From a virus: a DNA stretch of 64,000 bases. The stretch lies in the IMG/VR virus record IMGVR_UViG_3300020473_000023, positions 32,001-96,000 of that record, one strand, 5' to 3'. The stretch's first letter is position 1. The number at the start of each line of letters is the position of its first letter. Shown here one piece after another: positions 1,975-63,437 of this stretch. The position numbers and the translations under genes are program-made. The notes beneath the pieces were generated by a model, which made no database searches, had not been told where the DNA came from, and saw nothing but the letters and a program-made list of their open reading frames with translations.

Positions 1975-2826
1975 TCACAGGTTTTGTAGAATCCAATCTT
2001 CTGCAGTTGCTGACAGCGGACCCTGTATGAATCTATTTATCTTCTGAATATCCTCAGAAGTAACTGCCGTCCCTCTCGGCTTTGTATTATCAATCTCGAC
2101 AAACCGATCCTCACCAAACGCTGCCATGTACTCTGGAATTAGTGATGGGGTGGGCGGAGCTTCAGGCTTGTCTGGATTGATTCCCCCAAACAGTCTCCAG
2201 CATGTTCTTTCAACAGCAATATCGGCAAGCCCTCTTCCGGGTGGGTCAGCAAGGCCCCTCTCTCTATTCCTTCTGACCGACTCTTCTCTTGGAACATTGA
2301 CTGCAATCATCATTGTTTCATATCCCAGCTTTTCTAAAATAGCCTTCTGCTCGAGTGTCTTGTTTAGAGACGCAGCTGTTCCATCGATTATAAGGCCGAG
2401 CCTTCCGTCTACGTAGAATTCTTGAGAGCTTTTCTTTGACAAGCTTCTTCCGGGCTTCAAGCCAAATTCTTCGGGGTCGAGACCCTGCCTCTCAGGTGTG
2501 ACTCCATGCCATCCGGTAATGTTCTTTCTAGCCCTTGCTCCGAGCTTACCGGCTGCTGACTGCTGATCACTGGTAAAGTCCTGCTGATATCCCATCAGGC
2601 CGCTTGCTGTCAAATATCTATCAAGGGCATCATCTTGATTAACAATCTTCATACTGTTGGCTGCTAGAGTTGGAACATTGTTCAATACAAAGCCTATGAC
2701 AGATCCCTTTCCAGACCCTGGACATCCCGCCATGAAGATTGCCTTAAATATCCCTTCATCTCTTGGGCCCTCTCTCAGGAGCTCTTCTCTGATAATTCTT
2801 CTAAGCTGCCTGCGTGAGATCTTCAT
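1975..2826 (-). CDS. P-loop kinase (zeta toxin/AAA_33-like) with N-terminal leader
   Basis: Walker A GCPGSGKG, IIDGT, RNRER lid. Leader MKISRRQLRRIIREELLRE. Confidence 0.75.
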   Translation of the reverse strand: MKISRRQLRRIIREELLREGPRDEGIFKAIFMAGCPGSGKGSVIGFVLNNVPTLAANSMKIVNQDDALDRYLTASGLMGYQQDFTSDQQSAAGKLGARARKNITGWHGVTPERQGLDPEEFGLKPGRSLSKKSSQEFYVDGRLGLIIDGTAASLNKTLEQKAILEKLGYETMMIAVNVPREESVRRNRERGLADPPGRGLADIAVERTCWRLFGGINPDKPEAPPTPSLIPEYMAAFGEDRFVEIDNTKPRGTAVTSEDIQKINRFIQGPLSATAEDWILQNL

Positions 2827-2831
2827 AGACT

Positions 2832-2839
2832 ATAAATAT
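2832..2839 (-). promoter_or_regulatory. Class B (putative late) promoter ATATTTAT
   Basis: Recurrent intergenic motif 5 nt upstream of the ATG at 2826. Confidence 0.55.
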
Positions 2840-2862
2840 TGCTGACACATCCATTTAACAGG

Positions 2863-3087
2863 CTATAGTGGGGGCTCTCCGCACCTTATCTCAGTCACAC
2901 CGTCTATAATTTCCGCATAGAAGTGAGATCCCTCTGAAACCTCGCATGGAAATAGGTCAATCGGAATATCAGCGTGATACGTCTCCTGATCATCAGTCTT
3001 AAATTCCACAGTAGCCATATTGCCCTCAATAACATCAACAACGCCCAGACAAAAAAGCGTTGCAACAAGTAAGTTACAAACTCTCAT
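2863..3087 (-). CDS. Small protein, DUF3006-like
   Basis: VVDVIEGNMATVE...IPIDLFPCEVSEG pattern, hydrophobic N-terminus. Confidence 0.45.
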   Translation of the reverse strand: MRVCNLLVATLFCLGVVDVIEGNMATVEFKTDDQETYHADIPIDLFPCEVSEGSHFYAEIIDGVTEIRCGEPPL

Positions 3088-3094
3088 ATTTTCC

Positions 3095-3592: not shown

Positions 3593-3933
3593 TAGAATCT
3601 TTCGTCCTTTACAATTCGCATCACTCGCCTGAGATGGCTAAAGTTTTCTTCATTATATCCAATGTCGGAGCCAAGTACAATATCATCATTTTTAATACTG
3701 TTAATAAGGCAGAGGTCTATTTCCCAGATTTTTTCCAGACTTCCCTTGACAAGAACGTCCCAGACCCTGCTGCCAAAGCCTAGACTCTCAACATCCTCTT
3801 CGCTATACTCAGCTGTTCTCTCTCTGAGGAGTATTCCAAATACATCATCATCAACAGCATTTTTTACTGATGGGTCAATTGCAGAATAAAGCCGAGCGAC
3901 ACCTGTTAGTCTAACTAAGTCTCCAGGTTTCAA
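3592..3933 (-). CDS. Hypothetical protein (MKPGDLV, SH3/KOW-like)
   Basis: Coupled ORF with a typical phage PGDLV N-terminus. Confidence 0.55.
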   Translation of the reverse strand: MKPGDLVRLTGVARLYSAIDPSVKNAVDDDVFGILLRERTAEYSEEDVESLGFGSRVWDVLVKGSLEKIWEIDLCLINSIKNDDIVLGSDIGYNEENFSHLRRVMRIVKDERF

Positions 3934-4466
3934 GCTATCGTGAACTTGGGCATCGTGAGAGATTTACCTGTTGGGAGCCTTGGATCCCAATTCCACTCTG
4001 CATAAGTCGCTGGATCTCCTAGATCTTCTAGATAATCTTCTTTGCCGGTCCCTTCAATTTCTAGACCATCATCCATTACGGTGGCACTGGCAACAGCGAA
4101 TCCATCGTCATCACGAGAAAATGATAATTGAACTGTGAACGATCCACTGACGTCGTCACGGTTTAATTTTGAAGAGTAATCTCTCCAAGTATTCGAGATG
4201 CTCTTGTTGATATCATCGGCGCGGACGAGCTCGTCGACATCATCTTCTTCTTCTTCTTCGTCGTCGTCTTCGTCTTCGTCTTCGTCTTCGTCTTGGTCGT
4301 CTTCTTCTTCTTCGTCTTCTTCGTCTTCATCATCAGCGTCGTCTTCGTCTTCTTCGTCCTCGTCTTCGTCGTCGCCCAGGGCATCAGCTCCCGGGGAGGC
4401 TTCAAGAATTAAGCTAATAAGCTCGTCCCTGACGATCTTTCTAAATTCACTAAGTCTTAATCTCAT
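3930..4466 (-). CDS. Leader-bearing protein with a 48-residue Asp/Glu tract
   Basis: Leader SEFRKIVRDELISLILEA, SD GAGGA, upstream ATACTTAT. Confidence 0.65.
   Translation of the reverse strand: MRLRLSEFRKIVRDELISLILEASPGADALGDDEDEDEEDEDDADDEDEEDEEEEDDQDEDEDEDEDDDEEEEEDDVDELVRADDINKSISNTWRDYSSKLNRDDVSGSFTVQLSFSRDDDGFAVASATVMDDGLEIEGTGKEDYLEDLGDPATYAEWNWDPRLPTGKSLTMPKFTIA
4230..4373 (-). repeat. Low-complexity GAC/GAA trinucleotide tract encoding poly-D/E
   Basis: (tcg/tct)n on the plus strand. Confidence 0.9.
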
Positions 4467-4485
4467 AGGATCCTCGCTTCAATCA

Positions 4486-4493
4486 ATAAGTAT
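4486..4493 (-). promoter_or_regulatory. Class B promoter ATACTTAT
   Basis: Recurrent motif upstream of 4466. Confidence 0.55.
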
Positions 4494-4501
4494 TTACTTC
4501 A

Positions 4502-4937: not shown

Positions 4938-4947
4938 AGGCTACCCA

Positions 4948-5286
4948 TCACTTCTTTGAAGTCTTAGATGGAGCTTTTTTCCTTGTTGACCTTCTAGCCC
5001 GTGGCTTTCTCTTAGGCACAGGGATTTCTTTAGTAGGAGTGGTAGCTTTCTTTTCTTTAGTGGGCTTCTGTACCACAGGCACCTCGGGAGGCAGTTCAGG
5101 TGGCAGTGGAGCCTCAGGTGGGCCAAGGATCGCTAGGACATCTTCATGAGATTCATGAGGTGGAATAACACCAGCCCTGAGCAGGTGCTTTCTCATGTCG
5201 CTATATGTTTTAATTTCATGATGAGCAGCCCAACCTAGAATCTTAAGAAATCTTCTATTTTTATAATCTTCCCATCTAATTCCCAT
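4948..5286 (-). CDS. Hypothetical protein with basic Pro/Lys-rich tail
   Basis: Packed ORF with SD. Confidence 0.55.
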   Translation of the reverse strand: MGIRWEDYKNRRFLKILGWAAHHEIKTYSDMRKHLLRAGVIPPHESHEDVLAILGPPEAPLPPELPPEVPVVQKPTKEKKATTPTKEIPVPKRKPRARRSTRKKAPSKTSKK

Positions 5287-5566
5287 CTGACATAATTCCT
5301 TCTAAGTTTTGAGAGATAATATCATTAAGTATGCTGAGAACAGAATTTACCTGATCTTCTGATAACAAGTCTCCCAAATCTTTAGAAATTTTATCTCTGA
5401 AACTGTTTGGAGAAGCGTAGTTTTGAATATTAGTCTCCATCTCACTAATAGACTTTGCACACACTTCCATTACTTTTTGGAGCTTGTCATCTGACCAGTC
5501 AAGAGACTCTAGAATTGCTGTTTGCTTCGAAATATTAGAAAGCTCATTAAAGAAAAACTCTAACAA
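5276..5566 (-). CDS. Hypothetical protein
   Basis: Packed ORF. Confidence 0.5.
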   Translation of the reverse strand: MLEFFFNELSNISKQTAILESLDWSDDKLQKVMEVCAKSISEMETNIQNYASPNSFRDKISKDLGDLLSEDQVNSVLSILNDIISQNLEGIMSDGN

Positions 5567-5568
5567 GA

Positions 5569-5850
5569 CTAAATCTCCAAATCCCTAATTGCTTCAGATA
5601 CACCTAGTTGAAATCTAGGATCAATCGATACCTCATCAATCTTTTCTTGATTTGGGCTACAGTCATAAAGCGTAACCATATCTTCAGCAATTTTTCTCAT
5701 TGCAGAAATAAAAACATTTCTAGCAGTTGAGTGATTCATCTTAAAACCATCTTCAGACATCTTTTCTGCAATCTCTCTATATCCGAGTCCTCCATCAGAA
5801 CTGACAGTTGCATATCCTCTCTCAACCTTAAAGCCTTTGGGCATTGACAT
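5569..5850 (-). CDS. HTH protein resembling sigma70 region 4.2
   Basis: LGYREIAEKM...NHSTARNVFISAMRKI. Own SD AAGGAG. Confidence 0.65.
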   Translation of the reverse strand: MSMPKGFKVERGYATVSSDGGLGYREIAEKMSEDGFKMNHSTARNVFISAMRKIAEDMVTLYDCSPNQEKIDEVSIDPRFQLGVSEAIRDLEI

Positions 5851-5881
5851 TTATTCTCTCCTTTGGTATAAGTTTATTTTT

Positions 5882-6616
5882 CTATACAGAGACGTTAAAC
5901 TCTTCGTCTCTTTCAATGTCTTCATAGATTCCAAATCGAAGTCTTAGAATCTTTTCTTCTCTTGGCGAAAGCTTTCTTAAAGAGCTCTTAATCACCTCGA
6001 GTGTTTTTTGTCTATCGAGGGCTGCATCAGGCGTCTCTGTCCTGTCATCAGAGATAATCTCTTCAAACCTTCTTCCATTTTTTTCATCGCCGAGTGCAGC
6101 ATCTAATGAAATTGAATTTTGAACAGCTGCAGATTCAAGACTAAGCTTGATCATCGCTTCTGTTACGCCAAGCAAGTCTGCAATCTCACTAGTAGTGGGC
6201 TGGTGTCGAAATTCATCTTCATATTCCTTGCAAATTCTTTTAATTTTCCATATTAAGCCAGAAGCATGAGCAGGAACTCTAACAGTCGACTTATGAGAGC
6301 TCAAGTGCCGACTCACAGACTGTCTAATCCACCAGCTGGCATATGTGCTAAATTTAAAACCTCGTCTCCAGTCAAATCGATCAACAGCTTTCATAAGCCC
6401 AATATTTGATTCCTGGATTAAGTCCTCTAAATCACAGCCCATTTTAGAATATTTTTTTGCAATACTGATCGCTAGTCGAAGATTACACTGAATCATTCTA
6501 TCTCTAGCGTGAAGATCACCATTTTCAATGGCTTGAGAGAGAATAACTTCTTCTTCTCGAGTTAAAAGGTCGTATCTTGATACATCTTTAAAGTAATAGT
6601 TTAATATATTTGACAT
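5882..6616 (-). CDS. Sigma70-family (RpoD/RpoS-like) sigma factor lacking region 4.2
   Basis: Region 1.2 LLTREEE, region 2 NLRLAISIAKKY / DLIQE.NIGLMKAVDRFD..RGFKFSTYASWWIRQ, region 3 SLD, region 4.1 LSPREEKILRLRFG, then stop. Confidence 0.92.
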   Translation of the reverse strand: MSNILNYYFKDVSRYDLLTREEEVILSQAIENGDLHARDRMIQCNLRLAISIAKKYSKMGCDLEDLIQESNIGLMKAVDRFDWRRGFKFSTYASWWIRQSVSRHLSSHKSTVRVPAHASGLIWKIKRICKEYEDEFRHQPTTSEIADLLGVTEAMIKLSLESAAVQNSISLDAALGDEKNGRRFEEIISDDRTETPDAALDRQKTLEVIKSSLRKLSPREEKILRLRFGIYEDIERDEEFNVSV

Positions 6617-6647
6617 TTAATTTACAAATTGATAATTGAAATATTAA

Positions 6648-6665
6648 TGACACAGAATTGTGTCA
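6648..6665. promoter_or_regulatory. Inverted repeat TGACACA-gaat-TGTGTCA upstream of the sigma gene
   Basis: Perfect 7-bp arms in the intergenic region. Confidence 0.45.
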
Positions 6666-6702
6666 CACTAAATATAGTCACGACAATAATAAAGGAAAGG
6701 CT

Positions 6703-6924
6703 TTATTTATTTCTTCGTGATCTTTTTTGAATAAATTCTTCATGAGCCCTTCGTCGCTTCTCTCTAATGAAGATTTCTCTCTGAAGATAACAGAGCTCGA
6801 TTTCAAGATGTTTCTTGTTATCTTTTTGATTTTTATAGGTTAAAAGGTTTTTAATTTTAGAAGATTGACCATACAAATCTTCATCTGCCATAACTGAAAT
6901 CTTATCAATGTTCAGCTTTCTCAT
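6703..6924 (-). CDS. Hypothetical basic protein
   Basis: ORF with SD GAGG. Confidence 0.55.
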   Translation of the reverse strand: MRKLNIDKISVMADEDLYGQSSKIKNLLTYKNQKDNKKHLEIELCYLQREIFIREKRRRAHEEFIQKRSRRNK

Positions 6925-6993
6925 AGATATCCTCTTTTTTAATGTTATCTAGTTGATTAAAAACAGCCATATTGGGATAGTTCCCAATTAATA

Positions 6994-7215
6994 TTATAAA
7001 TCACAATTACACTTTTTACACGTAGATCCAAGCATTTCTTTATATATTTTTTTAACCCTTCTAGAGGCAGTGTGTGTAAATAGAAATGGAACAAGAGAAT
7101 GAACAAAGAGAGCAAAAGAAGCTATGCATGACTCACCGGACCACCTAAGTGATCTTTTCATATGATCAACATAGGAAATATTATTTTCTTTAAGATGAGA
7201 ATCTAGAAGTCCCAT
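6994..7215 (-). CDS. DUF6356-like small membrane protein
   Basis: HLKENNISYVDHM...VHSLVPFLFTHTAS pattern. Confidence 0.6.
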   Translation of the reverse strand: MGLLDSHLKENNISYVDHMKRSLRWSGESCIASFALFVHSLVPFLFTHTASRRVKKIYKEMLGSTCKKCNCDL

Positions 7216-7216
7216 A

Positions 7217-7552
7217 TCACACCGCCATTAAATCAAAAAACGTTTTAACTACAAGCCCAACAAGAACAGAAATCACCATCCAGCTTACCTTTCTATAGGA
7301 GGCAAGCTGAGACTTCATAACAGCAAAGTCCTCTCCAAGCGCTGCTGGGATTCTTGAACAATGTGCTTCAAGAAGCTGAAGCCTTGTCTCTTGGTTGGAA
7401 GTGATATTTTTCATATCATCTAGTGATGTTTCTAGCTTGTTCATGCCCACCATAAGTTGCTCAATCTTTGCCTCGACATTTGCAGAAGAAACTTTAATCT
7501 CTGTTAAAGATTCCTGAAGCTTTCCTACCCATTCAGCGCTAGCATTAGACAT
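7217..7552 (-). CDS. Coiled-coil protein with C-terminal TM helix (XhlA-like)
   Basis: Heptad pattern followed by hydrophobic WMVISVLVGLVV. Confidence 0.5.
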   Translation of the reverse strand: MSNASAEWVGKLQESLTEIKVSSANVEAKIEQLMVGMNKLETSLDDMKNITSNQETRLQLLEAHCSRIPAALGEDFAVMKSQLASYRKVSWMVISVLVGLVVKTFFDLMAV

Positions 7553-7685
7553 TTTCTACCCTCCCTCTAAAGCGAAAACAAAACAAACAAAGCACAAGAT
7601 TAATTAATCTGAACTTAGTACTTTTCTATAATATAAAAGTAAAGGAGTCTTGTGAACACTGAAGAAGAAAATCTATTATCTACGA

Positions 7686-8069
7686 TCATAAGACAATAGG
7701 TTTTCCATTATGTAGAACCCTCTTACTGTTAACTGTAATTACTTTAACAATCTCTACACCAGGTAATTTTTTAATATTTTTGCAAAGGCTGTAAATGTTA
7801 TCATAGTTCGTCTGACCGTCTTTCGGTAAAAACTTAACATAAACAATAAGAATAGAGTTTCCACCTCTTGTACTTCTAAGCACCTTATCACCCTGTCCGA
7901 CAACAGAAACACCTTCAAGAACTCTAATTCTTGTTAAAGTGTCTGGAACATGACCGTCTGGATGCATTATTAGTCGCAACGTTGTCTTGGCAAGATTTAC
8001 TTTAAGTCGAAAGTCTGCCTCAAGCAGAAGGTCAATAGCTGATCTTAAATCTTCTTCTTCCCTTTTCAT
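7686..8069 (-). CDS. Hypothetical leader-bearing protein
   Basis: EEDLRSAIDLLLEAD leader, upstream ATATTTAT (8090..8097). Confidence 0.6.
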   Translation of the reverse strand: MKREEEDLRSAIDLLLEADFRLKVNLAKTTLRLIMHPDGHVPDTLTRIRVLEGVSVVGQGDKVLRSTRGGNSILIVYVKFLPKDGQTNYDNIYSLCKNIKKLPGVEIVKVITVNSKRVLHNGKPIVL

Positions 8070-8116
8070 TGCAAGAAGCCCCCGTGTGAATAAATATCAT
8101 CCACAGTAGGTAAAAT

Positions 8117-9727
8117 CTACAACTGATGAAACTCAGCTTGGTCCTCGTCTACCATCGTGCATCCGACAGTAAGCATCATAGATGCAGCTGAGGAAGCATT
8201 CTCCAGTGCAGTTCTAACAACCTTTAAAGGATCTATAATTCCCATCTCCATCATATCACCATACTCATCTGAAAATGCGTTGTAGCCAAGATTCTTTTTC
8301 ATTCCAGTAACCCTGTCTAGAACAACATCCGGTGTTCCTCCAGAATTAATTACGATCTGTCTCAAGGGTTCAGAGCATGCTCTTCTTACAATCTGCCTTC
8401 CAGCCTCGAATCCAGACATAGCATCTGCATCATTATTAGAAAGTATGCTCGCTGCCCTAACAAGGGCAACTCCTCCGCCAGGTAAGATCCCTTCTTCTAT
8501 TGCTGCCTGAGTAGCGTGAAGCGCATCATCAACCCTGTCTTTTCTCTCCCGTAATTCAACCTCTGTCGCACCACCAACCTTAAGAACAGCAACACCACCA
8601 GAGAGCTTCGAAAGCCTATCTTTTAAAATCAACTCCTCAGCCTCTTCAAGAGCGGGGGATTTAAGCTGCTCCCGTATTGAAGTGACTCTTTCCTTAACAG
8701 CTGATTGATCACCTGAACATCCGATAAAGACGGTATTGTTTTTTCCACATATTATCTTTTTACACGTTCCAAGGTTTTCAATGCTGGCTTCTTTAAGAGA
8801 GGTCCCTGTCGTATCCGAGACAATATCACAATCTAAAAGAACGGCGAGGTCTTGAAGCATCGCTATTCTGCTTTCTCCAAATCCAGGAGACTTAATTGCA
8901 CAAGACTCAAGTGTCCCTTTAAGGTGATTAACAACAAGACCCTGCATTGCATCTCCGTCGACATCATCTGCAATTACAAACAAGGGATGACCTGATTCGA
9001 GAACGACTTCAAGAATGTGCATAATATCTTTAAGATTTGTAATTCTAGAATTAGAAAGTAAAACATAGGGATTCTTAATCTCAGATATCATCTTGTCTTG
9101 ATTGTTGACAAAGTATGGAGACAGGTACCCTCTTTCAATATTCATTCCCTCTACAGTTGTTAAAGTAGTATTAAATCCTTTTGCCTCCTCAACTGTGATC
9201 ACACCATCTCTTCCAACAGAGTTAATTGCCTCAACTAAAAGAGATCCAATTTCTGTCTCCCCGTTGGCTGAAATAGTACCAACATGTTCTATTTCTTTAT
9301 CTGTTGTAACTTCAATAGAAAGCTCTCTTAGCTTGTCTATTACATCTGAGACTGCACTTTCGATACCCTTCTTAATTTCTGATGATTGAAATCCAGCAGC
9401 AAGCATCCGAACCCCCTCAGAAAATATTGATTGAGATAGAACTGTTGCTGTTGTGGTGCCGTCACCTGCAACTTCAGCCGTTCTAGAGGCTGCCTCTTTA
9501 ATAATTTGAACACCTAGATTGTCAAACTTATCTTTTAAATTTACAGCCCTGGCAACTGTAACCCCATCTTTTGTCAGGATTGGCGAGCCAGATTGTTGCT
9601 CAATGACTACGTTTTGACCTCTTGGTCCCATAGTTATTTTAACTGCATTTGCCAAGATATTTACTCCGGTTAGGAGCCTCTCTCTTGCAGAAACATCAAA
9701 CTTTATAATCTTATTTGTCTGAGACAT
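8117..9727 (-). CDS. groEL: Chaperonin GroEL
   Basis: TMGPRG, TKDGVTVA, GDGTTTATV, GGGVAL, GIIDP motifs. No GGM tail. Confidence 0.97.
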   Translation of the reverse strand: MSQTNKIIKFDVSARERLLTGVNILANAVKITMGPRGQNVVIEQQSGSPILTKDGVTVARAVNLKDKFDNLGVQIIKEAASRTAEVAGDGTTTATVLSQSIFSEGVRMLAAGFQSSEIKKGIESAVSDVIDKLRELSIEVTTDKEIEHVGTISANGETEIGSLLVEAINSVGRDGVITVEEAKGFNTTLTTVEGMNIERGYLSPYFVNNQDKMISEIKNPYVLLSNSRITNLKDIMHILEVVLESGHPLFVIADDVDGDAMQGLVVNHLKGTLESCAIKSPGFGESRIAMLQDLAVLLDCDIVSDTTGTSLKEASIENLGTCKKIICGKNNTVFIGCSGDQSAVKERVTSIREQLKSPALEEAEELILKDRLSKLSGGVAVLKVGGATEVELRERKDRVDDALHATQAAIEEGILPGGGVALVRAASILSNNDADAMSGFEAGRQIVRRACSEPLRQIVINSGGTPDVVLDRVTGMKKNLGYNAFSDEYGDMMEMGIIDPLKVVRTALENASSAASMMLTVGCTMVDEDQAEFHQL

Positions 9728-9729
9728 TT

Positions 9730-9921
9730 TTACCCTTTAAGGATTTTCCGCTTAGATTCTGAAATAATTGAACCTGCATCGAGAACTCTTCGGGACTTTG
9801 TGAGAACATTTTCTGCAACCACTATATCTCCAACCTGTATTGCAACCTCACACTCCTGAAGAACGCCTTTGTCTCTTAGATCCTTGATATCAGAATCAGA
9901 TAAAATCTTTTCAATGCTCAT
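9730..9921 (-). CDS. Hypothetical protein
   Basis: Coupled ORF directly upstream of groEL. Confidence 0.55.
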   Translation of the reverse strand: MSIEKILSDSDIKDLRDKGVLQECEVAIQVGDIVVAENVLTKSRRVLDAGSIISESKRKILKG

Positions 9922-10364
9922 ATTAGCCCCTCTATTTTTGACATATTAACCTTTCCTTTAATCCCATTTCCGAGATCTATCATTACTGTACTATCTAACT
10001 GGCTTCCGGTGTCCATGATATCAATAGCCTTTTTACTTATATCTTCATCATCACTGGAATTAAAAATTTCACTACTGGTCTCAAACTTTGAATTAGCAAT
10101 TGCAATAGATTCATTAACAAGAGTATCTATTGCAGATGTTGCATTTTCTACCATTAAGGCTCTAATATCTTTTGAACTTGTAAATATTTCACAATCTATT
10201 TTTGAAAGATCGATCTTAGTGCCTTCAGAATTCGGAAGCTTAACGACATAAGAAACATTTTCTCCCTCAATGCTCTTTCTAACTATTTGCTCGACAATTT
10301 GAACCGGTGCTATTTTTTGGCTTTTGTTAATTAAGAGATATAAAATTTGACCAACATCATACAC
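9918..10364 (-). CDS. Hypothetical protein
   Basis: ORF with SD GGAG. Confidence 0.6.
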   Translation of the reverse strand: MYDVGQILYLLINKSQKIAPVQIVEQIVRKSIEGENVSYVVKLPNSEGTKIDLSKIDCEIFTSSKDIRALMVENATSAIDTLVNESIAIANSKFETSSEIFNSSDDEDISKKAIDIMDTGSQLDSTVMIDLGNGIKGKVNMSKIEGLI

Positions 10365-10410
10365 TTGAATTCTCCGACTAGAAAAGATACACTACAGAAC
10401 AGAAAAAGTA

Positions 10411-10440
10411 TAAAAAAATAGGAGACCTTTCGGCCTCCTA
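10411..10440 (-). terminator. Rho-independent terminator
   Basis: Minus strand TAGGAGGCC-GAAA-GGTCTCCTA then T7. Confidence 0.85.
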
Positions 10441-10463
10441 GTTTTAAACTATAGAAAAATAAA

Positions 10464-10661
10464 TCACCGCTTTAAGCTATTGAGATATTCTTCTATATCA
10501 CCCGTAAGGACAAGAAAGGTCTCCTTCCCGCCGGATTGTTTTGTATATGGTGATAAGTTAAGTCTCATTAACTCATCTCTTAGGCGATGCTCTTCTCTGT
10601 ATCCGCCATATGTGGTATAAATCTGTACTAACCGCTCAATAACGGAAGGATGTAGCTGCAT
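10464..10661 (-). CDS. Hypothetical protein
   Basis: SD AGGAG. Confidence 0.55.
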   Translation of the reverse strand: MQLHPSVIERLVQIYTTYGGYREEHRLRDELMRLNLSPYTKQSGGKETFLVLTGDIEEYLNSLKR

Positions 10662-10673
10662 TATTTCTCCTGG

Positions 10674-11282
10674 CTATTTAAACCCGATTCCAAGTCCCGC
10701 AACAGCAACCTGTCCAGGCTTGCTGTGTTGAGGCTTATTATCACCGTACATCCAGTTTCTTGTAGTGTATAGGCCGCCGTCACCCATTTCTTCAACTATG
10801 CTACCAATCTCTTTTCTAATGGCATCTCTAAGTTGATTTTCTTCCTGCAACCTCTTGCTTGACAAGTTGTTTCGCTTAGCTCGCTCTTTCTTCATTCTAG
10901 AAATCTCTCTTCGAAGCATAGACTCATTAATCTCAACCATCTCTTCCATCGGGCCGCCAAGCTCTTCATCGGTGATGGCGTCATAGTCCTGCTCCTCAAC
11001 TGGGGCGAGCGAATCGAGGGCTTCCGCGTCTTCATCACTCATCGTCATCTCATCACCGCCTCCTGGAGGATCATCAAGTTCTCCCATGGCGAATGGGTTG
11101 TTATCTTCATCGCCGCCCTCTGGAGGCTCGTCAAGCTCATTCAGGTCTCCTGAATACCAATCAACTCCCTCATCATGGCCCTCATCATGTCGGCTTTGAT
11201 TTCCTGACTCATTTAGTGATCTTCTGTCTGAAGAAGTAGAAATTCCAGCAAGCTTTGCTAGTCTATTGGCATTGAAACGCAT
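10674..11282 (-). CDS. Acidic putative prohead core/internal protein
   Basis: RLAKLAGI, SLNE, INESMLRREI, EENQLRDAIRKEI. Upstream ATATTTAA. Confidence 0.55.
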   Translation of the reverse strand: MRFNANRLAKLAGISTSSDRRSLNESGNQSRHDEGHDEGVDWYSGDLNELDEPPEGGDEDNNPFAMGELDDPPGGGDEMTMSDEDAEALDSLAPVEEQDYDAITDEELGGPMEEMVEINESMLRREISRMKKERAKRNNLSSKRLQEENQLRDAIRKEIGSIVEEMGDGGLYTTRNWMYGDNKPQHSKPGQVAVAGLGIGFK

Positions 11283-11330
11283 GATAAATCTCCTATACGC
11301 TGAATTAAATATTTCACAACTTTAGAAAAT

Positions 11331-11717
11331 TCAATCAACTTTTATATGTTCTTGCTCTGTAGTTTCAGCTTCTAGGTTATTTCTAACCCTCCCGGTTATT
11401 GCAGAACCCTTTGCGGCAGCAACTCCAAGCGGCTCTAATCCCAGAGCGCCTCTAACAATATCGTAAATTGAAGGAGAAAGCTTATCTTTAAGAACAGCCA
11501 TGTCTGCGTATTGGTGAAGATCCCACTCATATACGGGAACCTCTTCGCCCTCCAGCCCCGGTTCGTAATTTCCACTAGCACGACTTTCAAATATAAATAG
11601 CATTCTGGGCATATCTTCACCCAGTGGAACCATTATAAAGGGTATCTGGGAAGATACACCCTCCTGAGACTCTTCATACATGATCTCAGGAAACCAATTA
11701 GAAACTTTTTCTGTCAT
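11331..11717 (-). CDS. Hypothetical protein
   Basis: SD GGAGG. Confidence 0.65.
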   Translation of the reverse strand: MTEKVSNWFPEIMYEESQEGVSSQIPFIMVPLGEDMPRMLFIFESRASGNYEPGLEGEEVPVYEWDLHQYADMAVLKDKLSPSIYDIVRGALGLEPLGVAAAKGSAITGRVRNNLEAETTEQEHIKVD

Positions 11718-11781: not shown

Positions 11782-12951
11782 CTATAAAGCCGGCTCTGCT
11801 TCAAGGGGTCGAATTTGCTGCAGTGTTTCTTCATAGATTGGCTTTATTGCTACTAGGATTGCCTCTTGGACTTCGGGTGAATCAGAGGAAGTCTCGCTTA
11901 CAATTCTATCAAGAGACCCCCCGATAACACCAGAAAAAATATCTGGAATTAAAACCCTTATTTGAGAAAATAAATCCTCAGACCCTGCCTGAATATCTTC
12001 GACAGTAACGTTTTCTCCAGTAATCTTTTTCACTCTTTGAGCAAGGACTTGCGGGGTAAAAGACCCTGATTCTCCGGGTTTTCCCATAAGAGAAGAAAGG
12101 CTTATAGCAAGTGAATTTAAATCTTGAGAAGACATGGCATCACGATACATTACCAATAGATTGTCCATGTCTAATCTGGCAGAATTTGACAATTCAGAAA
12201 CTACTTCTGGAACCTGTGACACATCAATCTGTGGCAGCACTTCTTGAGCTGGGTCAGGAAGTTCACCCAATCCATCATCAGGCTCTTGAAGGTCATCAAT
12301 CTCTGGATCAACCTCAACGACTTCAGGATCTATTTGACTCTGATCAATGGGCTCTAGATCGACAAGAGGCTCATCTTCTAAGGGTGTAGCCAAGATAGTT
12401 TCTTGTGCCTCTTCCTCTTCCTCTGCAGCCGCCTCAATCGCATCGTCAACTATTTTATCTGCCTCTGCCTCTTCTCCAGCCCTAGCCTCATCTGCCTCTA
12501 ATAAAAAATCAAGCGACATATTTTCAAGACTGAACGTATCAAGTGAATAGTGAATGCTTTCTGTTGCAAGGCCAGTTGTCTGAAGAATTCCTGGACGCTG
12601 CTGCGTACGCCCGAGAAAACCTCGTGCCTTTCTAAGTGTTGTAGCTTGATTGGTCACGATGCTTTCATAATCCGGAGTCCCACCCCCAAGAAGTCCCTTC
12701 ATCCCTTCAGCACCTATCTTAAATACTGATTCAGCTCCCTTGTAGGCAGCAACACCAGCGTAAGCAAGAGATGAGACAACACCTATGGCATGCCCTATTA
12801 TCTTCTTAACAGAACCTATCCACCCAATAACGTCAGGCATAGTACCCACACCGACAGACTGACCGGCACGTCGGACGTCTCCTCGATCTTTTCGTTCAGC
12901 AATTAAAGACTCTCTAATAAACTGACGGATTAATTTTTCATTTGAGCTCAC
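11782..12951 (-). CDS. Acidic leader-bearing hypothetical protein
   Basis: Probable GTG start at 12951 after SD GGGAG. NEKLIRQFIRESLIAE leader, internal FLLEAD. Confidence 0.6.
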   Translation of the reverse strand: MSSNEKLIRQFIRESLIAERKDRGDVRRAGQSVGVGTMPDVIGWIGSVKKIIGHAIGVVSSLAYAGVAAYKGAESVFKIGAEGMKGLLGGGTPDYESIVTNQATTLRKARGFLGRTQQRPGILQTTGLATESIHYSLDTFSLENMSLDFLLEADEARAGEEAEADKIVDDAIEAAAEEEEEAQETILATPLEDEPLVDLEPIDQSQIDPEVVEVDPEIDDLQEPDDGLGELPDPAQEVLPQIDVSQVPEVVSELSNSARLDMDNLLVMYRDAMSSQDLNSLAISLSSLMGKPGESGSFTPQVLAQRVKKITGENVTVEDIQAGSEDLFSQIRVLIPDIFSGVIGGSLDRIVSETSSDSPEVQEAILVAIKPIYEETLQQIRPLEAEPAL

Positions 12952-13207
12952 CAAACAACTCCCTTCTCTCAGCAAGTGTTCTTAGGACAAGCCTAACACC
13001 TGTTAGATCATGATAATAATTAATCAGCTCCTGCTCAAAATTATTAAGCCACTGCTCCTTTGTCTTAGGGTCTCTGGTGGAAAAATTCTTTCTAAGCCCT
13101 GAGGGTATTCCAAGCATGATCTGCTTCTTAATCATAACCCAGTCATCCATGTCGCCCGCGTAAGATGACACAAATTCAACTTGCTCCCTGATCCTGTCAG
13201 GAATCAT
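12938..13207 (-). CDS. Hypothetical protein
   Basis: ATGA-coupled ORF. Confidence 0.6.
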   Translation of the reverse strand: MIPDRIREQVEFVSSYAGDMDDWVMIKKQIMLGIPSGLRKNFSTRDPKTKEQWLNNFEQELINYYHDLTGVRLVLRTLAERRELFGELK

Positions 13208-14679
13208 CTATTCATTCCCAGCAAGAGCATCTCTCTGACGAACTCTCTTAGGAGCGATTCCCGAATCTTATCATACATGACAAATCCACTTTCTTGCCCT
13301 TGGGGCGACATCTGAACATCTCCAATTGTAATATCTTCCTTGTTAACAGCCCTAGCTGGATCAAGCATAACAGCAGCTTTTGCCCTATCTGCTATCACGA
13401 TTTGAAATCTAAGGCCCATTATCGGCTTGACGGGAGATGATTCCGAGTCTCCAGCGGGAGGTGAAAGATATTTCTTAGGCCTTCCTGCAGAACCGGTTAT
13501 AATTACTGTAGGTTTCTCATTTGGAGAGAGGTCATCAATAGAAGAGTAGACAGATCCAGGTATAGTGAGTGTTTTTGTGGATGGGTCCCATTCTCCTACG
13601 GGCTCATCGGCGTAATAGTCTCCTTTAAGGACAAGGTCTGCTCTATTTTCTCCAGACCCAAAGACAGCATGCTCCATAAACTCAGGACCCAAATACTCAT
13701 CTGGAACTGTAAAGTTGGTTCTAATCTGTTGACCATCCTTTTCAACAACCATCTTAGAGCCCGCTTGATTTGGACCTGCTCCAACTATCTTTGCTATTCC
13801 CCCACCGTCAACCTCGACTCCAGAACCTTCCAGGGCCTGAAGGAGCGGGCTTAGCAGGGGAAAGGACATGTCCGCAGAGAGCCAGTGACCAGCATTTATC
13901 ATTTTCATGCTGACACCTATCTCACTCTCACCTCCGTTGTACACAATGTCGACATCACTCTTTGAGGTAACTCCGCCCTTCTTTTCTGTTCCGGCAGCCT
14001 TGGCGCTAATAACTCCCTTAAGTGACGTATTATTCTTGCCTTTCCGATCCAGAAAGACAACAGTTAAAGGATAATCTCGACCGAGATCCGACTCATACGG
14101 GGGAAGCCCTTGCACAGCAAGATTTATGTCATCAGTGACTCTTTCTTCGCTTATAATCCCTAGAGACTTCGAGCCTCCTGCCCCTTGGACCTTAAATGCA
14201 AGTTTTTGATGAGGTGTAATGTCATCTTTCCCTGTCTTTGTAAACTGGCCAAGAGATTTAACAAACTCAATTGGACCAAGGCCCTGTGGGCCTTGCATGA
14301 CCTGAACTTTTATTCCTTGATTTTTCACCATTTTCTGGAGAGCCTGAGCCCCTGACTCTCTCTGCTCCTGGTCTTTTCCAGAAATTAGTGAGAGGTTCTC
14401 AAGAAATGTAATTATCTCTCGATTGTGTGGATCATCTTTGAGAATTATACCTTGAATAAATTCTTCTGGATAAAGATCTCCGTCAATGGAAGCTTCTTTG
14501 CGAACGCTAATTGTAAAGTAGTCGCCTGTTCGGATCTTCTCCAGCATTATTAAAAATCTATCAGGCCTACCGGCACTGCTCTTTGGCTTTGATAGCTCTC
14601 CAGCAGTCAGCCCGACCCGATTGGCTTCTAGAAAAAGCTCTCTTATGTACTGTCTAAGAAGTGACTCAGAAATCATCAT
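13204..14679 (-). CDS. Putative PD-(D/E)xK-type nuclease with leader helices at both ends
   Basis: GIISEE...KSDVDI...GVSMK pattern. N-terminal ESLLRQYIRELFLEA, C-terminal ESLLREFVREML. Confidence 0.45.
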   Translation of the reverse strand: MMISESLLRQYIRELFLEANRVGLTAGELSKPKSSAGRPDRFLIMLEKIRTGDYFTISVRKEASIDGDLYPEEFIQGIILKDDPHNREIITFLENLSLISGKDQEQRESGAQALQKMVKNQGIKVQVMQGPQGLGPIEFVKSLGQFTKTGKDDITPHQKLAFKVQGAGGSKSLGIISEERVTDDINLAVQGLPPYESDLGRDYPLTVVFLDRKGKNNTSLKGVISAKAAGTEKKGGVTSKSDVDIVYNGGESEIGVSMKMINAGHWLSADMSFPLLSPLLQALEGSGVEVDGGGIAKIVGAGPNQAGSKMVVEKDGQQIRTNFTVPDEYLGPEFMEHAVFGSGENRADLVLKGDYYADEPVGEWDPSTKTLTIPGSVYSSIDDLSPNEKPTVIITGSAGRPKKYLSPPAGDSESSPVKPIMGLRFQIVIADRAKAAVMLDPARAVNKEDITIGDVQMSPQGQESGFVMYDKIRESLLREFVREMLLLGMNR

Positions 14680-18923: not shown

Positions 18924-19348
18924 AGCTGATCCTCACCTTGCTGGTCGGAAATATAAAAGTCTTGAATATCTCTGTATAAATTGTCACAAAAGCCAGCCAG
19001 CTCTTTATCCAGCTCTGTAACCTCATTAACATTATGTGTATAAGTTTCAATCTTAACATCGCTACCTTCGATAATAATTCTGGCATGATGTCCCATTTCC
19101 TCTTGCTCAAAGATTAAGTGTGTCACAAAATCTTTTACCATTCTAGGATCGTTAAAGGAAAACACCCGAGTTAATCTTTCAACCTCGCCGTCGCTTACAA
19201 CCATCCACTCAGACCTGCTAACAGCAACAGGAAGCTCTCCGATCACACCGGGAGAAAGATTTCCTAAAATTGAATCTATTCCTTTCATTTTCATATCACT
19301 CTCCTCCTGCAAGATTGACCTTCCAACAACTTCTAAGAGTGACTGCAT
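18920..19348 (-). CDS. Pterin-4-alpha-carbinolamine dehydratase-like (PhhB/PCD)
   Basis: W...LTRVFSFND...FV...EEMGHH...THNVNEVTELD...A pattern. Confidence 0.8.
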   Translation of the reverse strand: MQSLLEVVGRSILQEESDMKMKGIDSILGNLSPGVIGELPVAVSRSEWMVVSDGEVERLTRVFSFNDPRMVKDFVTHLIFEQEEMGHHARIIIEGSDVKIETYTHNVNEVTELDKELAGFCDNLYRDIQDFYISDQQGEDQL

Positions 19349-52773: not shown

Positions 52774-53376
52774 TCACTCAAAATCTATGTCAACTGAGAC
52801 GTTAATGTTAAACTTGGGAACTCTTAGCTGATTTGCCATTCCATGCTTTTTAGCCTCAGTTGCATCTAGAAACCAATCAGCATGACCCTTCCTGTGGACA
52901 ATCTTAAGAAAATAATCATCTTTCTTTCCACAATTACGAGCCATCATTGAATATACTTTTTGATTTAGTCTGTCTGTCTCTTCCGCACTGACCTTGACTT
53001 CTTCAACCTTCCCCCACGCCATACTTGAAACGTCGTGAATCATCACAGTGGCATCAGGATCCATAAACCTCATTCCCTGCTCACCAAAGGAAAAAAGTAT
53101 GGCGCCGCAAGACATCGCTTTTCCTTCAACGATTGTAGCTATGGGAAGCTCTGAATGACTTATGGCACTAATCATGGACATCAAACTGTAGACCTGTCCG
53201 CCATACGAGTCTATAACAACAGGAACTACCTTTTGTCCTGTATTGTGAGCTTGGGCCATTTGCTGCTGAAACTCTTTTGCAGATTTTTCATCAAACTTAT
53301 TTACAGTAATTATTACTGGATTTTTTCTTAGCTCCACTTCCTTAATAAGCGGAGACATACTAGTCGTCCATTTCAT
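52774..53376 (-). CDS. clpP: ClpP-family protease
   Basis: IDSYGG, AMSCG (Ser), MIHD (His), DWFL.A.EA...G. Confidence 0.85.
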   Translation of the reverse strand: MKWTTSMSPLIKEVELRKNPVIITVNKFDEKSAKEFQQQMAQAHNTGQKVVPVVIDSYGGQVYSLMSMISAISHSELPIATIVEGKAMSCGAILFSFGEQGMRFMDPDATVMIHDVSSMAWGKVEEVKVSAEETDRLNQKVYSMMARNCGKKDDYFLKIVHRKGHADWFLDATEAKKHGMANQLRVPKFNINVSVDIDFE

Positions 53377-59457: not shown

Positions 59458-59466
59458 AATATTCAA

Positions 59467-60258: not shown

Positions 60259-60302
60259 GTTAACCTCCTAGATTTTTAAACTGGTAAATTGGCAATATAT
60301 TT

Positions 60303-60324: not shown

Positions 60325-60360
60325 TTTAAACATACAGTCAAAAAATAGGTTGTTCAACAA

Positions 60361-62163
60361 TTAATAGCTTTTTACCGGATAGGTCATCCAAGCCTTAGAT
60401 CTCTTACCGCCTCCGAAGCCTCTCTCATTTGCATAGATCGACCTTTCTCGAGCTTGATGGTCGTGATCTATTCCTGCATCAGGGCCAGTTCCAAGGGGAG
60501 TTACAGGTCCACCTCCACCTGCTGCTGCACCGCTTGCCTCTTCTACCTCATCGTCATCTTTTTTTTTTAATTTCTTTGAATCATCTTTTGCATCAAGAAT
60601 TTTCTTCGCCTCCTCGCGAATAATTCTTCTAAGCGCCTGCTCCTCAAGACTTCCGGGAATTGTCCTCACGGGCCTGGCAGAATAAGCCGAATAGCCGTCG
60701 TCTCCCTTGTAGGAGACAATATATTCATCTGATATATCTTCTCTCTCTTCTTGCTCTTCAGAAGATATGTACTCTTGACCATAAGGTAGGACGTCACTAG
60801 GAAGATATCCTGGACCGCCGTGTCTGCTTGGAAGCTCTTCTGTAACCTCTTCTTCCTTTGCTTCTCTAATCATCTCTCTGATAAAAGTTCTCAATGTTGA
60901 TTCTGACATTCCTAAATTCCTCATTATCATATTATATCTATTCTCAAGAAGCTGAAACCTTGCTTCTGAAATTGGGCAAGCACACCCCTCTGCCTCCGGA
61001 AAGCTCACCTCATCACCTGGCATCACCGGGACAGCCGGCTCTATGCCTCCTTCAGCATCAGGATTGTCTGCTTCTAGATCGGGCTCATCTTCCTCTATTT
61101 CTGCCCTTGCTTCATCAGAAATCGGCAACTCTTCAACGATACAAAGTGAAGTATCTCCATCCAGTGCAGTGTATAGAGAGCCTAGCCTTGAAAGTGAAAG
61201 AGAGGGCATTTGCCTAACAGCAGAAAAAACCGGACCAAACCCAGACTCTAGTCGACTCATCGCCTCTCCAAACTTTGGAGAGACTGATTCAATATTCTGT
61301 GACACCTCTAATGCTCCAGAAAGCATCTGTGCTAATCTTGAAGATAGGCTAAATATAAGACGCTCTATTGGAAGTGTTCGAACAAAAAATCCAGAAAGTC
61401 CTGAGATGAAATTCACTGCAGGAAGAGTTGCGGGTTCATCGCCGGGTATGGGAATTGCAACTAGTGCAAATACGGAGTCGTATGCTTGAACTATTGTTAC
61501 AATTGCATCTTTAAGGGCAGTTAGGAATTCTCTAAAGCGAGATCTTGACTCGAGTCTGATTGCTGGATCCAGGTTGCAAATATTCTGAATTATCTGGATC
61601 ATCGGTCCATCTGACGGCTCTATCAATGATGATGAAAGGATTTCTGGATCGACACCTATTAAATCACACATCTCTTCAATGGCAACTCTTCCAGCCTCTG
61701 CCTCCCTATCTAGAATCATCTTTCCAAGAAGGAGGTCAACGCCTGGAACCGAAAGCCCGAGGCTTTTTGCTGCATCTTCGACAAATCCTGGTAAAAATCC
61801 CTCCTTCAGCGGGTTAAGTTTTTCCTGTCTTCGTCTAGGTCTCATTCCCAGTGAATAGAGAGGGAGCTTTCCTGTCCTTAAAAAGAAATCATCATCTTCA
61901 AAGTCTTCATCGTCAACCTGGGTTGGAAACATCGGTTCTGCACATGAATCGTCTTCAAACCCCCTGTTGACTCTTCCAATCCCATCGATAGAAGAAAATC
62001 CACTATCAGCGCTCATTGAAGGTTGACCTGATGATCCTGTATATTTGTATCTTCGAGGTCTTCCAAGATATTGAGATCCGTCAGATGTAGCAGAGGGTCC
62101 TGATGGAACCTTTATTCCGTGACTAGAATAGTACCCAGTCTTACTCTCGCCATTATCTTTCAC
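60361..62163 (-). CDS. Large acidic hypothetical protein with internal leader-like helices
   Basis: SESTLRTFIREMIREA, EEQALRRIIREEA. Upstream ATATTTAT (62168..62175). Confidence 0.65.
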   Translation of the reverse strand: MKDNGESKTGYYSSHGIKVPSGPSATSDGSQYLGRPRRYKYTGSSGQPSMSADSGFSSIDGIGRVNRGFEDDSCAEPMFPTQVDDEDFEDDDFFLRTGKLPLYSLGMRPRRRQEKLNPLKEGFLPGFVEDAAKSLGLSVPGVDLLLGKMILDREAEAGRVAIEEMCDLIGVDPEILSSSLIEPSDGPMIQIIQNICNLDPAIRLESRSRFREFLTALKDAIVTIVQAYDSVFALVAIPIPGDEPATLPAVNFISGLSGFFVRTLPIERLIFSLSSRLAQMLSGALEVSQNIESVSPKFGEAMSRLESGFGPVFSAVRQMPSLSLSRLGSLYTALDGDTSLCIVEELPISDEARAEIEEDEPDLEADNPDAEGGIEPAVPVMPGDEVSFPEAEGCACPISEARFQLLENRYNMIMRNLGMSESTLRTFIREMIREAKEEEVTEELPSRHGGPGYLPSDVLPYGQEYISSEEQEEREDISDEYIVSYKGDDGYSAYSARPVRTIPGSLEEQALRRIIREEAKKILDAKDDSKKLKKKDDDEVEEASGAAAGGGGPVTPLGTGPDAGIDHDHQARERSIYANERGFGGGKRSKAWMTYPVKSY

Positions 62164-62184
62164 ATAGATAAATATTCACAGCAA

Positions 62185-62778
62185 CTAGCTATTGCTAGTC
62201 TTGGATTTGTGAATTACCATAGCTTTAGCACTTTGCAAAGCAAGGGCAAGAGTGGGCTCGTGTCCCACATAGAACCTATTTTCTTCAAAATGACTTCCAG
62301 AAGCTATTTGAATAGCAATCCATTCTTCGGGCTCTAGTGTAATCCCAAACTGCTGTATCAGACAGAGTGATCTGTGAGAGACTGACATTCTACTTAGATT
62401 TTCGTTAAATTTAAACATCTGGCCAAGCTTCTCTCTATGCCAGTCTGAATCTTGCAAGATAAAATAGTCTTGATCTGTGGAGCCTACTTTTCCAATATCA
62501 TGAAGCAACCCGACCCTAAGAATTGAAGAAGTTGACAGCCCAAGATCATGAGACTCGTTTATCTTTCTCATCGTAGAAGTAACGTCGAGAGAGTGCTGAA
62601 TCAACCCTCCGGGAAAGGCTGAATACTGATCAAGTCTTGAGCTAGCTGGGCAGGTAGAAAGTCTTTCTCCCAGAGATTCTAGCATGTGATTTAAATTATG
62701 ATCAGAAAGCCTTCCGCAAAGCTTTTCAAACACACTCCAATTATTTTCAATATTCTCTATAGATGGATTCATAGTCAC
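62185..62778 (-). CDS. HD-domain phosphohydrolase
   Basis: PAS, GGL..HSL.V, LLHDIGK. Confidence 0.82.
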   Translation of the reverse strand: MTMNPSIENIENNWSVFEKLCGRLSDHNLNHMLESLGERLSTCPASSRLDQYSAFPGGLIQHSLDVTSTMRKINESHDLGLSTSSILRVGLLHDIGKVGSTDQDYFILQDSDWHREKLGQMFKFNENLSRMSVSHRSLCLIQQFGITLEPEEWIAIQIASGSHFEENRFYVGHEPTLALALQSAKAMVIHKSKTSNS

Positions 62779-62788
62779 CTCTTATAGA

Positions 62789-62816
62789 ATTATATTTTAG
62801 CAGACAGCAGTGTACA
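62789..62816 (-). promoter_or_regulatory. Class A promoter TGTACA-N16-TATAAT
   Basis: Recurrent motif. Confidence 0.6.
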
Positions 62817-63437
62817 CTAAAGTCTTACTATCATCATCAGTGATTTTTGTGCCCTGTCTTTAAAGCCGCATGGGTTGATTGCGTATCTTTCAGCCGGGTT
62901 TATCTTATTGTCAAGTAAGTTTCTTAGGGCACATGCTATTTGCTGATCAGTTGCAATTCTTTTTTCAGGTTTTTGAAGATAGACAGCAATCTCACCTCGG
63001 CGGATGTCTGTTTCAATCTTTTCAATATCGTTTCTTAGTGGGTGAGATCCACCTGAGACGAGGGAGCTAAGCTGGCCTCCGACAGATTGGACAGACAGTT
63101 GAGACTTTTTAAGAGGCTTTGGTTCTTCTGGAACTTGTAGGGCTTTCAGCTTTCTCTTTTTTGAAACGGGCTTTCTTAGACTTTGATCAGGATTTGCCTC
63201 TATATTATACAGACGCATCAGCCAGTAAGCTGAATCAGGGCTAATTTCATTAAATGACTGACCTTTTGAAAGAATTAATTTACCCTTTTTAGGCTCGAAA
63301 AGATCACTAGAAATAGGCTCATCAGGAGAACCTATGATCTTCTGAATGATGTACCCAAATTGGCCTACATTTCTAATATTTAAAATTTCAATCTCCTCTC
63401 TTATGATCCGAGAAAGATTTTTTCTGCTTATCTTCAT
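62817..63437 (-). CDS. Leader-bearing hypothetical protein
   Basis: MKISRKNLSRIIREEIE. Upstream ATACTTAT (63453..63460). Confidence 0.6.
   Translation of the reverse strand: MKISRKNLSRIIREEIEILNIRNVGQFGYIIQKIIGSPDEPISSDLFEPKKGKLILSKGQSFNEISPDSAYWLMRLYNIEANPDQSLRKPVSKKRKLKALQVPEEPKPLKKSQLSVQSVGGQLSSLVSGGSHPLRNDIEKIETDIRRGEIAVYLQKPEKRIATDQQIACALRNLLDNKINPAERYAINPCGFKDRAQKSLMMIVRL

Follow-up and report, generated by a model that had tools for sequence, protein, structure and literature searches.

The stretch of DNA analysed here (the window; 64,000 nt) corresponds to bases 32,001–96,000 of a 106,284-bp IMG/VR contig, IMGVR_UViG_3300020473_000023 (named G000; CheckV completeness ~40%), which stems from an uncultured marine T4-type giant phage. 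A short amphipathic helix, which we term the leader, is found on ~12% of the genes of this contig, with six further leader genes located outside the window. The leader is non-random, N-terminal, portable and under selection at the protein level, and it occurs in phages with T4-type head genes. From its sequence and by analogy with T4, we propose with moderate confidence that the leader forms the core of a T4-type capsid-targeting propeptide, which is N-terminal and has expanded greatly in this lineage. Since the helical tag ends in the cutting motif of T4-type head proteases, the proteins that bear it probably enter the capsid and are injected along with the DNA, as happens with three proteins in T4.

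The core motif of the leader, [LIF][RK]x[LIVMFY][IV]RE, was counted over the whole contig and compared with 500 per-protein shuffles, a control that the initial annotation of the window had named. The motif occurs 12 times versus 0.14 times in the shuffles (85-fold), and eight times versus 0.02 within the first 25 residues of the proteins (400-fold); I-R-E is present in all core copies. With a profile of the motif, 15 strong copies stand clear of the noise floor (shuffle maximum, 6.2 bits). The first Leu of the leader is located 5–9 residues from the likely start codon, and the motif begins at residues 5–9 in 11 of the 15 strong copies; in most cases its distance from Met1 is 7–8 residues. A degenerate DNA pattern for the more stereotyped of the two leader classes (class A, see below) has matches in at least 120 IMG/VR stretches, against none for the reversed pattern. 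That the motif would be a chance or compositional artefact of a Lys/Arg/Glu-rich proteome is practically out of the question, although part of the strings quoted in the initial annotation are no better than shuffled sequence; for the core set, chance is excluded. All twelve genes listed in that annotation begin at the positions given there and hold the strings quoted; the core set among these instances held good, whereas several other strings are weak or at noise level. One profile match, at 39769–40503, is a false positive: it consists of helix II and the HPD of a J-domain. The annotation had also considered that the motif could be equally common in replication enzymes. It is present on none of the window's DnaE, ribonucleotide reductase (RNR), helicase, UvsX-like, gp32-like and RNase H-like proteins.

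Strong copies in the window are carried by seven genes, and two sequence classes can be distinguished; all leader coordinates given here and below refer to the minus strand, which holds 140 of the 151 open reading frames (ORFs). Class A leaders conform to M-K-I-[ST]-x3-L-[RK]-x-I-I-R-E-E. In the 283-aa P-loop kinase (gene 1975–2826), the class A leader (2770–2826) comprises residues 1–19, with the start M-K-I-S, the core L-R-R-I-I-R-E and a terminal L-R-E before Gly20. The 206-aa protein encoded at 62817–63437 has its class A leader at 63387–63437 (residues 1–17), and it is retained by the orthologues in the relatives G001 and G010 and at the IMG/VR loci L028 and L125. A class A variant (23434–23475), starting with M-K-I-S and ending with I-L-E before Gln-Asp, forms residues 1–14 of a 202-aa acidic protein (22867–23475), of which the syntenic homologue in the relative G003 has a different leader, ending with L-T-E before Gln-Asp. 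A looser form of class A is seen in the 178-aa protein encoded at 3930–4466, where the leader (4401–4466; residues 1–22) ends with I-L-E before Ala23. In this protein, the leader helix and I-L-E are followed by ~55 residues of almost pure Asp/Glu and then by a 90-residue domain.

Class B leaders have the core L-L-R-[EQ]-[YF]-[IV]-R-E, followed by h-h-x-E, after a short variable N-terminal stretch. One of the two class B genes (11782–12951) encodes a 389-aa protein translated from a GTG at 12951; its leader (12895–12951; residues 1–19; core L-I-R-Q-F-I-R-E, ending with I-A-E) is retained in the G001 orthologue despite 42% overall identity. The other (13204–14679) encodes a 491-aa protein tagged at both termini. 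Its N-terminal leader (14626–14679; residues 1–18) ends with F-L-E before Ala and is invariant at 14 of 18 positions across seven homologues, down to 38% identity, and its C-terminal class B copy (13207–13263; approximately residues 473–491) is conserved in all seven. AlphaFold2 (AF2) predicts a helix at residues 4–18 on a low-confidence linker and another at 473–488 after a low-confidence linker (434–472). The initial annotation had taken the body of this protein for a possible nuclease, which is unsupported since no Pfam, PHROG or fold match was found for it and its AF2 model is weak (predicted local distance difference test, pLDDT, 58). The seventh gene (60361–62163) encodes a 600-aa protein with two internal copies, at 60859–60903 (residues 421–435, with a Met five residues upstream of the motif) and at 60598–60642 (residues 508–522), both conserved in the G001 orthologue. 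As the initial annotation had noted, an L/I-x-E is seen in the leaders, either inside or at the end.

The strongest evidence for a propeptide comes from two cargo families, the kinase and a protein resembling superoxide dismutase (SOD-like), and for both of them Pfam agrees with the names given in the initial annotation. The kinase matches Zeta_toxin/AAA_33, its body having the P-loop NMP-kinase/zeta-like fold, and has 5,049 homologues. Among the best 120 of these, 112 have a recognisable junction and in 111 of the latter [LIV]-x-E directly precedes the conserved body, while the leaders in front of it are of 79 different kinds, mostly 6–25 aa long (median 14) with a few much longer. E19 is invariant, and G20 nearly so, in 46 homologues. 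When the kinase is used as a tblastn query against cultured phages, the alignments begin only at residue 20, the first after the leader. The homologues of Melnitz, HTVC008M and RsoM2USA have leaders of 8–10 residues ending with L-x-E|G (the bar marks the junction), and some of the kinase leaders in other phages, located at the same position, are near copies of the capsid-targeting sequence (CTS) of T4. In Atu_ph07, the kinase domain is situated inside gp053, with V-T-E|G just ahead of it. This protein (Gp53, 87.08 kDa) was detected in Atu_ph07 virions by mass spectrometry (31 unique peptides, 45.5% coverage) and was most abundant in band 9, the other proteins of which are 20–22 kDa (PMC6102473, Table S5); because its abundance peaks in that band, Gp53 seems to be processed. 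The kinase homologue of RsoM2USA is not listed in virion mass spectrometry of this phage, in which only ten abundant bands were analysed. In the AF2 model of the window's kinase, a helix (residues 5–16) is followed by a lower-confidence loop with the L-R-E|G junction and by a strand at residues 28–33.

The SOD-like protein (23472–24203; Pfam Sod_Fe_C) has an N-terminal extension of 38 residues (24090–24203), with I-I-K-N-I-R-E inside and V-K-E at its end, before Ala39. Among the best 120 of its 2,097 homologues, all 120 have an extension of 21–39 residues ending with [LIVM]-x-E|[SA] right before the conserved body. No homologue of this protein was found in cultured phages.

The SOD-like protein is one of four in the window that are weak in the core motif, yet have an N-terminal leader and a [LIV]-x-E|small-residue junction that is conserved in orthologues or homologues; in the orthologues of these weaker genes, the leader varies while the junction is fixed and the body conserved. 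The 127-aa protein encoded at 7686–8069 has a weak leader (8019–8069; residues 1–17) ending with L-L-E before Ala, and its G001 orthologue retains L-x-E|A, although its first 17 residues have diverged while the body is 80% identical. In the 202-aa acidic protein encoded at 10674–11282, the true leader is N-terminal (11208–11282; 25 residues, ending with L-N-E before Ser), unlike the internal strings quoted in the initial annotation, and the G001 orthologue retains S-L-N-E|A. A doubtful leader (21009–21068; residues 1–20, ending with V-N-E), with a core-motif score at noise, is present in the 564-aa protein encoded at 19374–21068; the sequence in the same place of the G001 orthologue is L-E-E-F-I-S-S-R-I-K-E.

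Amongst paralogous leaders, codons vary synonymously and there is no common upstream DNA, from which it follows that selection acts on the leader peptide; a conserved DNA or regulatory element as the cause of the motif is ruled out by the synonymous variation. The twelve G000 bodies, once stripped of their leaders, have no mutual similarity except for one weak 18-residue match, in keeping with the earlier claim that the helix is portable and the attached domains unrelated. Likewise, the bodies of 102 IMG/VR leader proteins fall into 91 clusters, and only two of the 102 have a Pfam match. Most leader proteins are also without a PHROG family. In G001, a syntenic relative of G000, replication and structural genes are 88–95% identical to their counterparts and the leader proteins only 42–62%.

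A k-mer search for promoters showed that the T4 late promoter TATAAATA is not used upstream of leader genes. The octamer ATATTTAT occurs eight times on the gene strand and once on the opposite strand, and it is perhaps a promoter element, the cases being few. It is found at window positions 2839, 8097, 21093 and 62175 (minus strand) and also upstream of a G010 leader gene near 65,520. As a weak lead from the same type of search, the octamer precedes five G000 genes by 12–42 nt; four of these were listed in the initial annotation as leader genes, and 1975–2826 is the only one of the four with a strong leader.

The leader is widespread in other viruses. The class A pattern yielded 136 ORFs (among the matches listed), in which it marks true N termini. 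These ORFs have a median length of 120 aa, and hardly any of them can be assigned to a Pfam or PHROG family. In the 102 IMG/VR leaders, [LI]xE is 5–8 times denser at residues 16–30 than elsewhere; a second [LI]xE is present at residues 16–32 in 66 of them, and it is followed by G, S or A in 52%. Leader genes also occur in tandem, with six within 5 kb at the IMG/VR locus L068. In G003, a complete 293-kb relative, the core motif is found 34 times versus 2.6 expected (23 versus 0.3 at N termini), and arrays are formed by five class B genes and by at least 14 consecutive class A genes. A profile built from the 102 leader proteins retrieved ~8,500 cluster representatives at E ≤ 0.001 among 1.84 billion. 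Among the best 150 of these, 121 have an N-terminal copy and 105 have two copies, and 109 of the 144 internal copies keep a Met at the canonical distance. To judge from their sequences, the multi-copy proteins look like in-frame fusions of leader–body cassettes, as does the 600-aa protein of the window. Many of the database proteins P0250–P0398 have two or three full in-frame leader units, each with its own Met-Lys-Ile-Thr. Such multi-unit proteins may be gene fusions, reflect internal starts or be polyproteins cut by a protease.

The tandem arrays of L068 and G003 and the in-frame fusions, with their preserved internal Met-Lys-Ile-Thr, are what one would expect if the leader were a by-product of cassette shuffling via a shared 5′ module, or an expression-optimised N terminus, with no role in sorting. 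We nevertheless consider this improbable: paralogous leaders are not conserved at the nucleotide level or upstream and differ synonymously in their codons, the leader is far better conserved than the bodies over deep divergence, and one and the same cargo can have lineage-specific leaders yet a fixed junction.

The head genes that the proposed propeptide calls for were sought in the relatives of the phage. In five large leader-bearing contigs (255–293 kb), in which DnaE is 43% identical to that of the window, Pfam Gp23 is present in all five, and ten further relatives were collected via a 417-aa protein of the window. The gp21-type protease (Peptidase_S77, hereafter S77) is encoded in all 15 of these large relatives, which include G010; Gp23 was tested in the five contigs. 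S77 is also present in 11 of 22 other leader-bearing fragments. In G010, a close relative with core genes 84–92% identical to those of the window, S77 is located at 74,593–75,015, and the genes for terminase, portal, S77 protease, scaffold and capsid are in the T4 order. The protease gene spans 74,497–75,117 and the scaffold gene 77,675–79,165, and core-module proteins are encoded at 73,604–74,500 and 75,560–76,072. Three small proteins between the protease and the scaffold/capsid begin with leader-like helices, two of which end with L-N-E|G, and the same arrangement of small leader-like proteins between protease and scaffold recurs in G004 and G003. No PHROG family was found for the G010 head-module proteins. 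In the G010 capsid protein, L-L-R-E|A occurs no more than ~5 residues away from where F-L-T-E|A of T4 gp23 aligns. Moreover, the G010 scaffold (23 versus 12.6) and a core-module protein (15 versus 5.6) show an excess of [LI]xE, as does T4 gp22 (16 versus 5.7). Judged from these sequences, the specificity of the gp21-type protease appears to be conserved in the lineage.

The sole protease gene in the window (52774–53376, minus strand) encodes a ClpP/S49-like protein, which matches phrog_94 (head maturation protease; 3.9e-23) and phrog_1827 (ATP-dependent protease). The gene is flanked by those for RNR and endolysin; its product is 94% identical in G001 and also occurs in G003 and G010, beside a separate S77. 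The conservation of this gene and its match to head-maturation-protease PHROGs could suggest that the ClpP-like enzyme recognises the leader as a tag or degron, or processes it. This we regard as very improbable, given that the gene lies outside any head module, that L/I-x-E specificity is documented for gp21-type and not for ClpP-like proteases, and that the relatives also encode S77 within the head module.

The capsid-targeting propeptide that we favour has a well-described counterpart. In T4, IPIII is directed to the prohead core by a 10-residue CTS, in which residues 4 and 7 act in targeting and residues 8 and 10 in processing; an Asp in place of the junction Glu prevents processing but leaves targeting intact. 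The cuts made by gp21 follow L/I-X-E, and in Alt both ends are trimmed (PMC9026906). It has been suggested in review that the CTS lets T4-like phages package varied proteins (PMC9026906). Like the CTS, the leader is a short N-terminal tag on unrelated, fast-evolving proteins, and both start with Met-Lys, share the pattern h-x-x-h-[IL]-x-E (Y-Q-E-F-I-A-E in T4; L-R-[EQ]-[YF]-I-R-E in class B), which is too short for a statistical test of homology, and end with L/I-x-E followed by a small residue. Genes of the gp21 and gp23 types are present in the lineage, that is, in the relatives, and one protein of the window is tagged at both termini, which recalls the trimming of Alt. The two systems differ in the length of the tag (14–25 residues here versus 10) and in the existence of two sequence classes, as well as in scale, with ~12% of the contig's genes and ~8,500 protein clusters here versus three or four T4 proteins. 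Tandem arrays, in-frame multi-copy proteins and internal and C-terminal copies are further differences, and among the candidate cargo here are enzymes and polyacidic proteins, instead of small basic ones. In the T4 genome itself (NC_000866), a fourth ORF beginning with the ipI codons (Met-Lys-Thr-Phe-Lys-Glu-Phe), besides ipI, ipII and ipIII, is found at 19,111–19,130 on the minus strand (locus L221).

We infer core binding, cleavage, packaging and ejection in this lineage from the T4 facts on CTS and gp21, together with the common pattern h-x-x-h-[IL]-x-E. The signal would be an amphipathic helix of 14–25 residues, of class A or class B, at a fixed distance from Met1. During prohead assembly, the helix would bind to the helical scaffold or core, by which the attached protein becomes enclosed. 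The gp21-type (S77) prohead protease would then cut after the Glu of L/I-x-E, within the leader or at its end, and the freed cargo would remain in the head and enter the host with the DNA. The candidate cargo comprises the P-loop kinase, the SOD-like protein, polyacidic proteins and many ORFans.

The prohead core proteins of T4 (gp67, gp68 and gp22), which are cut by gp21 at multiple L/I-x-E sites, provide a second comparison. The layout of gp67 (a helix, L/I-x-E and a polyacidic run) is that of the 3930–4466 protein, the scaffold and core-module proteins of the relatives are enriched in [LI]xE like gp22, and small head-module proteins of the relatives begin with a leader-like helix. There is, by contrast, no detectable sequence homology (PHROGs gave no match), and the 3930–4466 protein is encoded outside any head module and has an extra 90-residue C-terminal domain that gp67 lacks. 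The phages phiKZ, 201phi2-1 and SPN3US are likewise giant myoviruses with heads of more than 50 proteins, including ejection proteins, that are trimmed after Glu. Their cleavage motif is A/S/G-x-E. They belong to a different lineage, and their propeptides have no single common leader sequence. Encapsulation peptides of bacterial microcompartments are another parallel: these short amphipathic helices, attached by a flexible linker to either terminus of enzymes that are unrelated, bring the cargo into a protein shell. Unlike the leader, they have no protease-type junction. The microcompartment shell protein family PF00936 was found in none of four genomes (G000, G001, G010 and the complete G003), while the control genomes matched; since no shell genes are present, encapsulation of this type was rejected.

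Several observations weigh against a capsid-targeting propeptide. Neither head genes nor the S77 protease are present on the G000 contig, and both are also absent from the G001 fragment, so that the link to head and protease rests on the relatives; S77 was also not found in two leader-bearing contigs rated 62% and 81% complete. In T4, P-SSM2, Syn9, HTVC008M and S-PM2, the core DNA pattern is not above chance (one match and one control match). Several strings of the initial annotation are at noise level, namely the C-terminal string of 40774–41343 and the internal strings of 10674–11282 and 19374–21068. An E-rich amphipathic helix often holds [LI]xE for trivial reasons. The leader is longer than the T4 CTS, and it also occurs C-terminally and internally, where a cut after I-R-E would leave the helix in place. 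As to the kinase, the invariant L-x-E-G could be a structural feature of the fold, and because AF2 models the leader helix fairly confidently (pLDDT 87 for residues 1–10), the leader may pack on the body.

Some of these points would fit an uncleaved helix that acts as a common tag for docking or oligomerisation and leads elsewhere than to the capsid, for instance to an assembly or replication factory, a membrane or the phage's own GroEL/DnaJ/J-protein chaperones. The helix is amphipathic with heptad-like spacing, some copies are internal or C-terminal, the phage has genes for GroEL, DnaJ and another J-domain protein, and the helix of the kinase leader is modelled with moderate-to-high AF2 confidence. 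Such a tag, which we hold to be unlikely, leaves several facts unexplained: two cargo families keep an invariant [LIV]-x-E|small junction behind leaders that are exchangeable, other phages have T4-CTS-like leaders on the same kinase, the Atu_ph07 homologue is located in virions, and head-module proteins have leader-like helices. The capsid-loading interpretation, already put forward in the initial annotation, is supported in part: it draws on the portable helix, the selection at the protein level, S77 and Gp23 in the lineage, the invariant junctions and one homologue in virions; it is weakened by the location of the head genes off the contig and by the ClpP-like nature of the only protease encoded in the window.

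Going beyond the propeptide itself, and tentatively, the leader could be one dialect of a lineage-specific "packaging code" in T4-type phages, in which a cargo would swap its leader to match the prohead core. The thousands of ORFan families, including in-frame leader–body–leader–body polyproteins that the head protease would cut into separate units, would then form a large injected pool, possibly of effectors for anti-defence or host take-over.

The principle of capsid targeting is known; what appears to be new is this leader, in two classes and on such a scale, together with its arrays, its polyprotein-like fusions and the pattern of exchangeable leaders at a fixed junction. A tblastn search of 50,697 phage records with a 25-aa leader and with a whole small leader protein gave no match, and no description of the motif was found in the literature when searched with motif strings. 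If the proposal is true, a short signature identifies what is injected, together with the DNA, by a large group of marine giant phages that are abundant and uncultured. The injected set would amount to about a tenth of the genes of these phages, almost all of unknown function, and would provide a catalogue of candidate host take-over and anti-defence factors. The exchange of leaders at a fixed junction in the kinase and SOD-like families would be a natural experiment on the co-evolution of targeting tags with the prohead core. Since the T4 CTS has already been used for loading foreign proteins into capsids (PMC9026906), new pairs of leader and protease would widen the capsid-loading toolbox.

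No close cultured phage was found for the window. Its replication and metabolism genes encode a DnaE-type polymerase, RNR, a helicase and RecA/UvsX-like, gp32-like and RNase H-like proteins, and its other genes specify GroEL, DnaJ, a sigma factor, an endolysin, the ClpP-like protease and large tail-type proteins. The set of chaperone genes, for GroEL, a full DnaJ and a further J-domain protein (8117–9727, 33216–34286 and 39769–40503), is unusually complete for a phage. Throughout the window, most genes are without an obvious Shine-Dalgarno sequence upstream of the start codon, which may hint at the host group. In G010, ~30 consecutive genes of the glycosyltransferase/sugar-nucleotide type occupy positions 1–32,000, upstream of the structural module. 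Finally, two adjacent tail-sheath paralogues, each of more than 1,000 aa and with similar N termini, are encoded in both G001 (5073–11368) and G010 (87,308–94,023).

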